DNA from: Candidatus Saccharimonadales bacterium
Lineage (GTDB): Bacteria > Patescibacteriota > Saccharimonadia > Saccharimonadales > DATKHC01
DNA: 64,000 nucleotides
Direction: 5' to 3'
Assembly (NCBI GenBank): GCA_038317055.1
Contig: JBBQBA010000002.1
Location: 70,106-134,105, forward strand
Shown here: positions 22,971 through 62,024 of the stretch, one piece after another
How the letters are laid out: every line of letters begins with the position of its first letter
How positions within the stretch are numbered: the first letter of the stretch is position 1
The notes under the pieces: model-generated
The model's database searches: none
Told to the model about the DNA's origin: nothing
The model's input: only the letters and a program-made list of their open reading frames with translations
Position numbers and translations under genes: made by a program

Positions 22971-23261
22971 ATGGACAAAGAAGCGTTAGCTAATTCAATT
23001 GATGATCTAAAGATTCACAGAAAGAAGAATTTAAGAGATGGGTGGTTACTAGCTTCTTTATCAGTTTTTAATATTTTAGGTACTGACACAAGCAATAATA
23101 CATTCTATAAATTTTTTGCAGGAAGTATGGCGGTAGCTGCATCCTTATATGCAACGCATGATTTTCTAGAAGCTAGAGAAGATAGACAATTTATAGATGG
23201 TCTTGAAATGGTACTAGAAGAACAAGATCATATCATAGAAAAAGACGATAATATCGAATAA
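22971..23261 (+). CDS. hypothetical small protein with hydrophobic core segment
   Basis: 96-aa ORF with no recognised motif. Confidence 0.45.
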   Translation: MDKEALANSIDDLKIHRKKNLRDGWLLASLSVFNILGTDTSNNTFYKFFAGSMAVAASLYATHDFLEAREDRQFIDGLEMVLEEQDHIIEKDDNIE

Positions 23262-33989: not shown

Positions 33990-34018
33990 TTTACAAATAG
34001 AGTTCTATCAGATACAAT
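33990..34018 (+). promoter_or_regulatory. putative internal promoter for tuf
   Basis: TTTACA (33990-33995), 17 nt spacer, TACAAT (34013-34018), in the 136-nt fusA-tuf spacer. Confidence 0.4.
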
Positions 34019-34087: not shown

Positions 34088-35269
34088 ATGGCAGAATTCA
34101 AACGCGATAAACCACATGTAAACGTCGGAACTATGGGCCACGTTGACCATGGTAAAACAACACTAACAGCAGCGATTACGTCAGTATTAGCTAAAAAGCT
34201 TCCAAGCGATATTAACAAATCAATAGCTTATGATCAGATTGATAATGCACCTGAGGAAAAGCAGCGTGGTATTACCATTGCAACTTCTCACCAGGAATAT
34301 GAATCAGAAAAGCGTCACTACGCTCACGTTGATATGCCAGGTCACGCCGATTACGTTAAAAACATGATTACTGGCGCAGCTCAAATTGACGGTGCTATCT
34401 TAGTTGTATCTGCAGCAGATGGTCCTATGCCTCAAACTCGAGAACACGTTCTACTTGCAAAGCAAGTTGGCGTTCCTTCAATTCTTGTATTCATGAACAA
34501 GATGGATCTTGCAGATCCTGAGCTAGTTGAACTAGTTGAAATGGATATCCGTGAACTTCTAGCTAAGAATGATTTTGATGACAACTGTCCGATTATAAAA
34601 GGTTCAGCTACTAAAGCTCTTGAAGGTTCTAAAGAAGATGAAGATGCAATCATGGAACTTGTTAAAGCTATGGATGATTACATTCCAGAACCAAAGCGAG
34701 AACTAGACAAGCCTTTCCTAATGCCAATTGAAGATGTTTTCTCTATTAAGGGACGTGGAACAGTTGCTACCGGCCGAGTTGAACAAGGTATTGTAAAAGT
34801 TAACGAAGAAGTTGAAATCGTTGGAATTAGAGATACACGAAAGAGTGTTGTTACTGGTGTTGAAATGTTCAAGAAAAATCTAGATCAAGGTCAAGCTGGT
34901 GATAACGTTGGAATATTACTACGAGGTGTTGAGCGAGAAGATATCGAACGTGGTCAAGTTCTTGCAAAACCTGGAACTATTACTCCTCACACAGAATTTG
35001 ATTCAGAAGTATATATCCTAACCAAAGAAGAAGGTGGTCGTCACACTCCTTTCTTTAAAGGTTACAAACCACAATTTTATTTCCGAACAACTGACGTAAC
35101 TGGTGAAGTAGAATTACCTGCAGACAAAGAAATGGTTATGCCTGGTGATACAACTACTTTTAAAGTTAAATTACTAGCACCTATCGCTATGGAACAAGGT
35201 TTACGCTTCGCAATTCGTGAAGGTGGCCGTACAGTTGGCGCTGGTGTTATCACTAAAGTAGTTAAATAA
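34088..35269 (+). CDS. tuf: elongation factor Tu
   Basis: 393 aa with [18 protein letters not shown] and NKMD. Confidence 0.98.
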
Positions 35270-35277
35270 GAAAATAA

Positions 35278-35523
35278 ATGTCAAATCCTGAATATCACAT
35301 TTTCGAACAACAGGAAGAATTTGAAGAACTATTTCGTGTTGGAAATACCGAATTAGGTATCGGTGTAATGATCGATACAGAAGAAGCTGCGGGTAGAGTA
35401 GCTGACATGCAACAAGGTTTAAATACAGTACATATTAAGGGAATGCGAGTACATTCACATGCATTACTTGATAACCCAATTCTTAGAGATATGTGGTTAA
35501 GAGAAAGTGGAGAAGAAGAATAA
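35278..35523 (+). CDS. acidic 81-aa protein of unknown function embedded between tuf and rpsJ
   Basis: The ORF starts 8 nt after the tuf stop. Its TAA overlaps the next ATG (TAATG at 35521-35525). No recognised family. Confidence 0.55.
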   Translation: MSNPEYHIFEQQEEFEELFRVGNTELGIGVMIDTEEAAGRVADMQQGLNTVHIKGMRVHSHALLDNPILRDMWLRESGEEE

Positions 35524-35747
35524 TGACAACTCCTGAATATTCACAGCCCGATTACGAACCAGTCATAGGTTTTGATGGCAAGGTTTATACCGCCGACGAA
35601 GTACGATTAGTCGAAGCAGAATTTGCTGTTGAATCAGCTGTAGCTTCTGAAAGACTTTTTAGTGATGGTTTTGGTGAAATACAAATTGCTGAGTTAAGCA
35701 TTGAGGCAGTTAGACTTCGAGCACGTCAATCAGGAGGAGTTATATAA
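35523..35747 (+). CDS. acidic 74-aa protein of unknown function, translationally coupled to rpsJ
   Basis: ATG 35523 ([22 protein letters not shown]...) has GGAGAAG upstream. Its TAA overlaps the rpsJ ATG at 35747. The track's longer 35493 start overlaps the previous ORF. Confidence 0.55.
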
Positions 35748-36088
35748 TGGCAGCAGCAACTGAATCTAAAAAGACCGAAACTGGTAAACAACGAATCAGA
35801 ATCCGACTTAAGGCATATGACCATCGTGTTATAGACCAGTCAGCGAAACAAATTGTAGATACAGCACTTAGAACAGGCGCAACCATTGCTGGACCAATAC
35901 CACTACCTACGAATAGAACTCTGTACACCGTAGTTAAGAGTCCTCACGTCTATAAAAAAGGACGTGAACAGTTTGAAATGCGTGTACATAAACGTCTTAT
36001 TGATATATTTGAACCTACTCCTAAGACAATTGATTCGTTAATGAATCTAAGTCTTCCAGCTGGCTGTGACGCCGAAATCAAGATGTAG
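35747..36088 (+). CDS. rpsJ: 30S ribosomal protein S10
   Basis: [34 protein letters not shown] 9 nt upstream. Confidence 0.96.
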
Positions 36089-36174
36089 TATAAACAACAG
36101 ATTGACAGGAGTAACGCTATAGTGTTACTATTGGTAGAATTTGACGAGTATTTTGCTTGGTGAACTAGGCAGGT

Positions 36175-36195
36175 CTGTCTTTTAGAAAAAGACGG
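36175..36195 (+). other. 9-bp stem-loop in the unusually long rpsJ-rplC spacer
   Basis: CTGTCTTTT-AGA-AAAAGACGG (one G-U pair). No following T-run, so it is not a canonical intrinsic terminator. Confidence 0.3.
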
Positions 36196-36265
36196 ATACC
36201 ACCAGTCACCAAGAATTTTATTGTCAAAACTTACGTTATTAATAACAGATGGGCAAAGGATAAAA

Positions 36266-38715: not shown

Positions 38716-38982
38716 GTGAGCGCTAATCTTAAAACAATAGAACAAGAAATTGATCGTAGACAAAATTTCGTTCAAGGTAAAAAACTTGGAGAAATACTTG
38801 CAAGATCAGTTAACGACGACGAACTTCGTGATGTTGCAGTATTTATTGGTCAAATATTTAAAGAATCATCATTGCCAGGTGCAGCTATTCCATACGCAAC
38901 TGCACAAGGCATGTGGTATGGTCTCGATTATCAGGAAGAAACACTAAGTATGATTACATCTAAGACAGCAGGAGCACAATAA
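38716..38982 (+). CDS. 88-aa protein of unknown function inserted between rplB and rpsS
   Basis: GTG 38716 lies 6 nt after GGAG (38706-38709). Its TAA overlaps the rpsS ATG (TAATG at 38980-38984). No recognised family. Confidence 0.6.
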
Positions 38983-61182: not shown

Positions 61183-61797
61183 ATGAGTTATGAATTATCT
61201 GATTTTACTTTTGATCGACGTATCAGAGGTGACTTTAAACCAGAAGACATTGCTAAAATAGAAGATCTTCTTGGAGATATATCTACACGTAACTATTTCG
61301 AGGTTGTTGATTATAAGGAAGAAGCTAGCAGGGTTGCAACAAGAGAAGACTTAGCATCTAGATTTAATACAAAATATCTTACCGAATACTTAATTGATGA
61401 TATACCTACATATGTTGTTACTCATGCTGATTTTGTTTGTTTTTATAAATATGAAAAAAAACAAATCAGTCGAAGAAAAATTGAAAGTGCTTGGGGAGTA
61501 TTAGACAAACACTTAACTATGCTCCACAGTAATCAATCAGAACTTGGAATCTCGTCGTGTTTAGACTGTACTCTTGTACCGGTATTTTATAATACACCGA
61601 GTAGTCATAGTCCATCTGAATTTAGCGGTAGATTATCTCTTTTTGGTATTACACCAGACAGCCTAGATGATAATGCTTCTAAGCTAGATGAGCTATCGGC
61701 CGGAAGTCGTCCTATAACTAGGAATAAGCAAAAAATAAATATTTTACCTGTGCATACTATAAGGTTATTTACGGATGGGATAAGGTTAGAAGTATGA
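61183..61797 (+). CDS. hypothetical protein
   Basis: 204-aa ORF with no recognised motif. Its stop overlaps the next start (ATGA). Confidence 0.5.
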   Translation: MSYELSDFTFDRRIRGDFKPEDIAKIEDLLGDISTRNYFEVVDYKEEASRVATREDLASRFNTKYLTEYLIDDIPTYVVTHADFVCFYKYEKKQISRRKIESAWGVLDKHLTMLHSNQSELGISSCLDCTLVPVFYNTPSSHSPSEFSGRLSLFGITPDSLDDNASKLDELSAGSRPITRNKQKINILPVHTIRLFTDGIRLEV

Positions 61798-62024
61798 GCG
61801 AACTTACACACGATGTTTATGAACCGTTATCAACAGTTGCAAGAGCAAGTAGAATTGGTGCGATCGCAGTTGGATTTTTTGTTGCGTCATTTGGTGTTGG
61901 GGAATTCTTATATGGTACGGATTTTGCGGGAATTCTCGCAGAAGGTCTCGCTGCATATTTAATTATTCCAAATTACGCAGATATTTTTTATGATAACAAC
62001 TATGAAAGACCCGAGCTTGAATAA
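61794..62024 (+). CDS. 76-aa two-TM membrane protein
   Basis: Hydrophobic segments IGAIAVGFFVASFGV and FAGILAEGLAAYLII. Overlaps both neighbouring genes. Confidence 0.45.
   Translation: MSELTHDVYEPLSTVARASRIGAIAVGFFVASFGVGEFLYGTDFAGILAEGLAAYLIIPNYADIFYDNNYERPELE

Follow-up and report, generated by a model that had tools for sequence, protein, structure and literature searches.

Chromosomal integration hotspots flanked by core genes are a general concept of bacterial pangenome studies. In Escherichia coli K-12, chiA, bfd, bfr and gsp (17 kilobases, kb) lie between tufA and rpsJ, the genes for elongation factor Tu (EF-Tu) and ribosomal protein S10, and form independent transcription units. The E. 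coli-type S10 leader, through which L4 mediates attenuation, is located 5' of rpsJ. Here, the tuf-rpsJ junction was analyzed in a stretch of 64,000 nucleotides (nt), referred to as the window, from Candidatus Saccharimonadales bacterium (assembly GCA_038317055.1, contig JBBQBA010000002.1, positions 70,106-134,105 of the forward strand), which is placed in the Saccharibacteria (TM7) by its S10 and EF-Tu sequences. The gene order in the window is rpoB-rpoC-rpsL-rpsG-fusA-tuf-(ORF1-ORF2)-rpsJ-rplC and onward to rplQ, where ORF1 and ORF2 are two small open reading frames (ORFs) that fill the junction.

The reading favored, with moderate confidence, is that ORF1 and ORF2 are two genuine lineage-restricted genes for small acidic proteins, carried as accessory passengers of a highly expressed variable slot and not as dedicated translation factors. 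The two genes are newly found orphans, and the variable slot that holds them is an already known type of feature. A search of the literature revealed no paper on the tuf-rpsJ junction in Saccharibacteria or other Patescibacteria. As in E. coli K-12, the content of the junction is lineage-specific and non-ribosomal. The E. coli inserts, however, are long and lie partly on the opposite strand (gspC-O), whereas the window contains two tiny genes that are built into a coupling chain through an 8-nt junction and 1-nt junctions and that lack signals of their own. The layout is as follows.

33990-34018: promoter-like site TTTACA-17-TACAAT ahead of tuf, from a promoter scan.
34088-35269, + strand: tuf, the upstream flank, encoding EF-Tu of 393 amino acids (aa) with Pfam GTP_EFTU and domains 2 and 3; stop codon TAA at 35267-35269.
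35270-35277, + strand: 8-nt A-rich linker GAAAATAA from the tuf stop to the ORF1 ATG, without a GGAG-type Shine-Dalgarno sequence.
35278-35523, + strand: ORF1, 81 aa; ATG at 35278 and TAA at 35521-35523.
35509-35512, + strand: GGAG, a possible Shine-Dalgarno sequence of ORF2, within ORF1 and 10 nt 5' of the ORF2 ATG.
35521-35525, + strand: TAATG overlap of ORF1 and ORF2, in which the last A of the stop is the first base of the ORF2 ATG.
35523-35747, + strand: ORF2, 74 aa; ATG at 35523 and TAA at 35745-35747.
35732-35737, + strand: AGGAGG, the rpsJ Shine-Dalgarno sequence, within ORF2 and 9 nt 5' of the rpsJ ATG.
35745-35749, + strand: TAATG overlap of ORF2 and rpsJ, with the final A of the stop also serving as the A of the rpsJ ATG.
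35747-36088, + strand: rpsJ, the downstream flank, encoding S10 of 113 aa (Pfam Ribosomal_S10, E = 2e-35).

The coordinates in a first-pass annotation of this DNA, made from the sequence alone, were exact with respect to the 8-nt gap between tuf and ORF1, the 81 and 74 codons, both stop/start overlaps and the AGGAGG within ORF2. Its description of both products as rich in Glu and Asp is borne out by computed isoelectric points (pI) of 4.6 for ORF1 and 4.2 for ORF2, with acidic residues making up 17 of 81 (21%) and 14 of 74 (19%), respectively. Since a hydrophobic N-terminal segment is absent from ORF1 and ORF2 alike, both products are probably cytoplasmic.

Coding potential was assessed with a codon log-likelihood model trained on the window's 48 ORFs that encode 150 aa or more. 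Read in frame, ORF1 and ORF2 score +0.58 and +0.57 per codon, respectively, compared with 0.63 for tuf and 0.38 for rpsJ; the remaining five frames of each give values from -0.03 down to -1.49. In-frame segments of 80 codons from real genes have a mean score of 0.39 (standard deviation 0.15) and off-frame segments a mean of -0.87; a score of 0.57 was reached by none of the off-frame 80-codon segments of the window's long genes. When models were built locus by locus, ORF1 and ORF2 were top-ranked among 64 + strand ORFs found in tuf-rpsJ spacers across loci. The first codon position is G in 41% (ORF1) and 49% (ORF2) of codons, and the G+C content of the ORFs (36-41%) is the same as that of the neighboring genes. 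When the 481-nt stretch was shuffled 5,000 times with its dinucleotide composition preserved, a pair of + strand ORFs, each with 74 codons or more, arose in 0.06% of cases (P = 0.0006), and the longest + strand ORF averaged 41 codons. ORF1 and ORF2 are very probably genuine protein-coding genes, and their codon usage is typical of highly expressed native genes. Its closeness to the codon usage of tuf suggests that the two genes are highly expressed and have resided there long enough to adapt.

These data bear directly on the alternative, raised in the first-pass annotation, that the region is a leader or spacer without coding function whose frames are open by chance. Some relatives do have long tuf-rpsJ spacers without long ORFs, as this explanation would predict. 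Against it stand the shuffle probability and codon scores beyond the reach of off-frame sequence, together with the behavior of the RNA: folding of the tuf-rpsJ region is no better than that of shuffles (z = -0.58), no Rfam match was obtained for it at the gathering score or at E <= 1, and its sequence is not conserved in relatives. The conserved leader-like RNA of the clade lies instead after rpsJ. With the E. coli-type S10 leader, therefore, the ORF1/ORF2 region shares position only; it carries neither the structure signal nor the conservation of a leader, and the saccharibacterial element is 3' of rpsJ. An accidentally open spacer is hardly credible on this evidence.

No homologue of either protein was found. 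When 5.8 billion protein clusters were searched by word index, ORF1 and ORF2 matched nothing but themselves, both in singleton clusters derived from one NCBI contig and one Logan assembly. The latter, from run SRR19962015, contains identical ORF1/ORF2 DNA, and the same reads probably underlie both assemblies. With a concatenated ORF1 and ORF2 query, HMMER searches of 1.84 billion representatives gave two self-matches and three eukaryote-type Kazal-repeat proteins only. There were no matches in Pfam, PHROGs, PADLOC or NCBIfam, in agreement with the earlier remark that the proteins match no recognizable family, and none among PDB sequences (for ORF2 at E <= 10). Nothing was found in phage records by tblastn, in IMG/VR contigs or in Joint Genome Institute (JGI) metagenome contigs, and tblastn and blastn of the ORFs against the loci of 80 relatives gave no similarity. 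As had been proposed from the sequence alone, ORF1 and ORF2 are very probably lineage-specific orphans.

The Kazal matches were considered separately. Residues 3-24 of ORF2 resemble the central Kazal motif, and residues 4-23 are identical to PESCPQEYDPVCGSDGHTYS at 9 of 20 positions. In the AlphaFold2 model of ORF2 (predicted local distance difference test score, pLDDT, 63), a hairpin at residues 14-22 precedes helices at 24-47 and 60-70, and a hairpin followed by a helix is likewise found in the Kazal-type inhibitor domain. That domain, however, has six conserved cysteines forming three disulfides, whereas ORF2 has no cysteine and no signal peptide. The Pfam Kazal profile did not match ORF2 at E <= 1, and the best Foldseek hit of the ORF2 model in the PDB had an E value of 2.2. 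Membership of ORF2 in the Kazal family was rejected, because the E value of 1e-19 arises from adding up a single short motif across 11 repeats, and neither cysteines nor a Pfam Kazal match accompany it; the matches were judged a short-motif artifact on these grounds. The likeness is a motif resemblance involving a beta-hairpin turn and not membership.

The junction was compared across the rpsJ neighborhoods of 80 species-representative genomes and of 6 contigs bearing the most similar S10 proteins in a large collection; individual loci are cited by L numbers. Spacer statistics refer to the 76 relatives' loci that contain both tuf and rpsJ. Spacer length has a median of about 500 nt and extremes of -10 and 2,514 nt; it is under 50 nt in 15 loci, 50-299 nt in 14 and at least 300 nt in 47. 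The premise of the first-pass annotation, that rpsJ or a leader normally comes straight after tuf, does not hold in view of these 47 loci, which mostly contain unrelated genes, or of the 17 kb in E. coli K-12. The comparison of spacers that had been recommended established that the slot is hypervariable, but it yielded no counterpart of the ORF1 and ORF2 frames in relatives.

The long spacers are mostly occupied by + strand ORFs that are unrelated to one another. Of the 85 + strand spacer ORFs of at least 55 aa (two being the window's own), only 4 small families could be formed, and the remainder are singletons. With the per-locus codon models, 45% of + strand spacer ORFs scored above 0.15, compared with 2% of - strand ORFs. 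Cargo recognized by Pfam includes a Bac_transf sugar transferase, a sulfotransferase, a NUDIX protein, a DnaJ J-domain protein, a glyoxalase, a DUF5684 membrane protein and a CxxCxxCC protein; many other spacer ORFs are small acidic orphans. The J-domain protein (about 140 aa) is the sole cargo family present in more than three loci and recurs in five (L016:2376-2786, L017:2369-2797, L028:2381-2821, L053:2042-2452 and L059:319-774). Two related spacer ORFs appeared HIT-like by eye, and Pfam gave no match for the one scanned (L032). In four loci (L005, L043, L065 and L070), spacer genes are tightly coupled to rpsJ, as in the window. At the other extreme, L006, L007 and L014 have spacers of 480-620 nt without a + strand ORF longer than 45 aa. 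Some relatives carry a -10-like box immediately 5' of the ATG or a hairpin after tuf.

A TATAAT-like box ends 5-9 nt before the ATG of several relatives' spacer genes (for example, L013:~2548-2567, L023:~2178-2196, L028:~1478-1495, L035:~1758-1776 and L053:~2026-2044), which suggests that leaderless or near-leaderless transcripts may occur in Saccharibacteria.

In the nearest relatives (L082-L087), the tuf stop is followed after 6-18 nt by the rpsJ ATG, with no insert. Identity between these loci and the window is 94-96% in EF-Tu (longer fragments), about 80-86% in tuf nucleotides and, where covered, 69-84% in L3 and 82-87% in L4. The ORF1 ATG sits where they place the rpsJ ATG, 6-18 nt past the tuf stop. 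Given the adjacency of tuf and rpsJ in these relatives, the two-gene block of about 470 nt would represent an insertion exactly at the coupling point or, alternatively, a deletion in the relatives. From the sequences compared, the tuf-rpsJ junction appears to be a recurrent insertion slot in the phylum, the content of which differs from genome to genome. Like other integration hotspots, it has conserved flanks (here tuf, rpsJ and rplC) around content that differs between nearly all genomes compared. It departs from them in that no integrase, tRNA or att repeats were seen, in that its cargo consists mostly of single small genes on the operon strand, and in that the gene cluster surrounding it is the most conserved one in the genome.

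The first-pass annotation had linked ORF1 and ORF2 to an insert between rplB and rpsS and proposed for them all a role associated with translation. That insert is the following feature.

38716-38982, + strand: 88-aa ORF between rplB and rpsS, with a GTG start, GAGGAG upstream and a TAATG overlap with rpsS.

Its product is acidic (pI 4.8) and its codon score is 0.56. No similarity was found in PADLOC, NCBIfam or the relatives' loci, the large protein collections not having been searched with this ORF, and rplB and rpsS abut in the six relatives with data (gap of -1 to 7 nt). The pattern that had been pointed out, of acidic, coding and TAATG-coupled inserts, stands: lineage-specific acidic micro-proteins coupled to genes for basic ribosomal proteins are a real pattern in this genome. 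Only position links ORF1 and ORF2 to the role assigned to them, and in this phylum position carries no information on function.

Such a role would make the products dedicated translation-associated micro-proteins. In one version, they would be acidic escorts or chaperones that are made beside, and bind, the basic ribosomal proteins whose genes follow directly (S10 after ORF2, S19 after the 88-aa ORF), or they would bind EF-Tu. Three orphans of 74-88 aa, all acidic (pI 4.2-4.8) and all with codon scores of 0.56-0.58, would fit such a role; one TAATG overlap couples ORF2, and another the 88-aa ORF, to a gene for a basic ribosomal protein, and location in the most highly expressed operons would yield near-stoichiometric synthesis. 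The proteins are, however, not conserved. The closest relatives (EF-Tu 94-96% identical) carry nothing between tuf and rpsJ, rplB and rpsS abut in the six relatives, and ORF1, ORF2 and the 88-aa ORF have no mutual similarity. Furthermore, the slot of other relatives holds miscellaneous cargo such as enzymes, J-domain proteins and membrane proteins, so position alone implies no translation role. Dedicated translation-associated micro-proteins are accordingly regarded as improbable. Dedicated escorts are known for eukaryotic ribosomal proteins; to our knowledge, none is known in bacteria. That ORF1, ORF2 and the 88-aa ORF might be lineage-specific co-translational escorts, as dedicated chaperones for S10, S19 or EF-Tu, is given a slightly lower probability still.

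Two further acidic ORFs were observed elsewhere in the window.

22971-23261, + strand: 96-aa ORF just 5' of rpoB (pI 4.6, codon score 0.45).
61794-62024, + strand: 76-aa ORF (pI 4.2, codon score 0.44).

How ORF1 and ORF2 might be expressed can be read from the layout of the junction. No + strand terminator-like site was found between 34088 and 36152, and promoter-like matches within ORF1 and ORF2 are weak only (9/12). An 8-nt gap, two TAATG overlaps, no terminator-like site and only weak promoter-like matches are together the anatomy of a coupled operon. About 12 junctions elsewhere in the window, between ribosomal-protein genes and between rpoB and rpoC, have stop/start overlaps of 1 nt as well, examples being rpoB/rpoC, rpsL/rpsG and rplC/rplD/rplW/rplB. 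The stop/start geometry of the ORF1 and ORF2 junctions is identical to that of such coupled ribosomal-protein genes (TAATG/ATGA overlaps), but the products of ORF1 and ORF2 are neither ribosomal proteins nor conserved. In the model suggested by this arrangement, read-through from the tuf promoter would transcribe ORF1 and ORF2. Ribosomes finishing tuf would reinitiate 8 nt further on, at ORF1, without a Shine-Dalgarno sequence; translation would then pass from ORF1 to ORF2 by termination-reinitiation at TAATG with the aid of GGAG, and from ORF2 to rpsJ in the same manner at TAATG with AGGAGG.

The same anatomy is relevant to the possibility that ORF1 and ORF2 form a horizontally acquired conflict cassette, such as a toxin-antitoxin, immunity or anti-defense pair. 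Antitoxins, immunity proteins and DNA mimics are typically small and acidic, and the junction presents two small overlapping genes in a hypervariable slot flanked by ultra-conserved genes. Saccharibacteria are also naturally competent (PMC10633639). Nevertheless, both products are acidic, leaving no basic or enzymatic partner, and neither PADLOC, Pfam, NCBIfam nor PHROGs gave a match. The genes have no convincing promoter of their own and no terminator-like site, their codon usage is native and highly adapted, and no relatives were found in phage or viral collections. A conflict cassette is consequently considered a poor prospect, at about the level of the dedicated translation micro-proteins. 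A type II toxin-antitoxin pair, in particular, was rejected: the genes overlap, but both products are acidic, no family matches and no convincing own promoter is present.

A direct repeat of 28 nt marks the starts of both ORFs, as follows.

35268-35295, + strand: repeat copy 1, AAGAAAATAAATGTCAAATCCTGAATAT, which spans the A-rich linker, the ATG and ORF1 as far as its sixth codon (M-S-N-P-E-Y).
35513-35540, + strand: repeat copy 2, AAGAAGAATAATGACAACTCCTGAATAT, the same module at the ORF2 start (M-T-T-P-E-Y).

The two copies, lying 245 nt apart, share 82% identity, and a comparable repeat pair was not seen in 100 shuffles of the window. No equivalent repeat was found in relatives' spacers, nor any shared boundary repeat, across the seven multi-ORF spacers inspected. 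Descent of ORF1 and ORF2 from a tandem duplication was rejected, since only the six codons and 10 upstream nt are shared; for the remainder, BLASTP gave no match and the alignment scores were z = -0.7 and +0.5 versus shuffles. The start module was also compared with rpsJ as a possible duplicate of its start, but no convincing relation emerged when the three starts were aligned with those of rpsJ in relatives, and this origin was likewise rejected. The repeat may be left over from a local duplication, may be a start region in which selection for reinitiation has preserved the likeness, or may mark a recombination boundary.

One account of the repeat is that ORF1 and ORF2 are young genes born or remodeled in place, the junction having expanded, as in relatives with long ORF-free spacers, and open frames in it having been translated and retained because it is transcribed and receives ribosomes from tuf. 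The 28-nt module would then reflect local duplication of a functioning start. The exact position of the repeat at both starts with nothing alike beyond it, the complete orphan status of the proteins, the ORF-free spacers of L006, L007 and L014, a G+C content equal to that of the neighbors and predicted structures of low confidence are all consistent with birth in place. On the other hand, tuf-grade codon usage would be unexpected for young de novo genes, the G-rich first codon positions resemble established coding sequence, and no non-coding ancestor was identified, since relatives show no DNA similarity. Birth in place is therefore viewed as unlikely, though less so than the other alternatives.

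The repeat also bears on whether ORF1 and ORF2 are halves of a single gene, about 155 codons long, that a frameshift has divided through sequencing or assembly error, pseudogene formation or programmed frameshifting. If ORF2 is extended to a GTG, it overlaps ORF1 by 31 nt, and the 482-nt spacer of L005 (EF-Tu 94% identical) is filled by a single 138-aa ORF. That ORF, however, has no similarity to ORF1 or ORF2. Moreover, the junction is an exact TAATG with GGAG 10 nt upstream, ORF2 opens with the same 28-nt module as ORF1, which would be expected if it had a start of its own, the junction is free of homopolymers and slippery runs, and the two assemblies are identical in sequence. A split gene is very improbable on these grounds.

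Several observations weigh against the favored interpretation of ORF1 and ORF2 as genuine accessory genes in a recurrent insertion slot. No second genome carrying them was found in protein, metagenome or relatives' locus searches. Their high codon scores reflect in part the Glu/Asp-rich composition, GAA and GAT also being common in highly expressed genes. The expression model is drawn from sequence anatomy alone and, because a recognizable Shine-Dalgarno sequence is absent, translation of ORF1 would depend on the inferred reinitiation. AlphaFold2 in single-sequence mode gave poor models (pLDDT 47 for ORF1 and 63 for ORF2), by which a fold is neither confirmed nor denied. With respect to the slot, none of the 20 larger cargo ORFs scanned had an integrase-like Pfam match, and the stretches inspected showed neither a tRNA nor att-like repeats.

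The regulatory element that had been expected upstream of rpsJ appears to lie downstream of it. In contrast to the tuf-rpsJ region, the rpsJ-rplC spacer of the window (36089-36265) has a fold z score of -4.57, and it contains the following elements.

36095-36107, + strand: extended box CAACNNRTTGACA of a promoter-like TTGACA-18-TACTAT site.
36156-36213: hairpin CTTGGTG...AGGTC...GAWACCRC...CACCAAG, with a U-run at 36216-36219.

The extended box is present as one + strand copy in 48 of 87 Saccharibacteria loci. It is separated from the hairpin by about 50 nt in the window and by 50-80 nt in the relatives checked. The loop motif AGGTC...GAWACCRC was found in 34 of the 87 loci and lies directly 5' of rplC wherever the rplC start was mapped; L082:1354-1498 and L007:4798-4940 are examples of the element in relatives. 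An RNAalifold consensus of 27 sequences contains 15 pairs, nine of them with compensatory changes, and Rfam 15 gave no match to the rpsJ-rplC element. The box and hairpin are probably an attenuator-type leader and, as such, the real leader of the operon, and the RNA may be a new ribosomal-protein regulatory element.

A promoter box and hairpin 5' of rplC place ORF1 and ORF2 in the tail of the tuf unit and not at the head of the rplC operon. The earlier proposal that the two genes are co-transcribed and co-translated with the S10 operon is thus upheld in part. The layout fits co-transcription from tuf to rpsJ with translational coupling, but strict membership in the S10 operon does not fit a promoter box and hairpin that follow rpsJ. 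In N. lyticus TM7x, tuf "promoter and terminator regions" and a predicted rpsJ promoter were used as expression parts (Wang et al. 2023, PMC10633639). This suggests that the two genes are transcribed as separate units in that organism. The rpsJ-rplC gap varies from 134 to 2,683 nt in 60 relatives' loci; with both gaps variable, rpsJ is bracketed by two variable slots.

Taken alone, ORF1 and ORF2 add two entries to the list of hypothetical small proteins and are of modest direct importance. Most of what is to be gained comes from the hotspot pattern seen across the phylum and from the candidate rplC leader. Saccharibacteria have two hypervariable slots, tuf-rpsJ and rpsJ-rplC, in an otherwise rigid ribosomal gene cluster, and the genes that turn over in these slots appear to be small, mostly acidic and unrelated, some of them being wired into the translational coupling chain. 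In a milder version of the proposals considered above, the slots flanking rpsJ may serve as a highly expressed nursery or landing pad in which new small genes are continually born or exchanged. For annotators, the pattern is a caution that operon position does not reveal function in this phylum. The slots offer a tractable place for studying gene gain in episymbionts with reduced genomes, and they suggest neutral yet highly expressed insertion sites for new genetic tools in Saccharibacteria.

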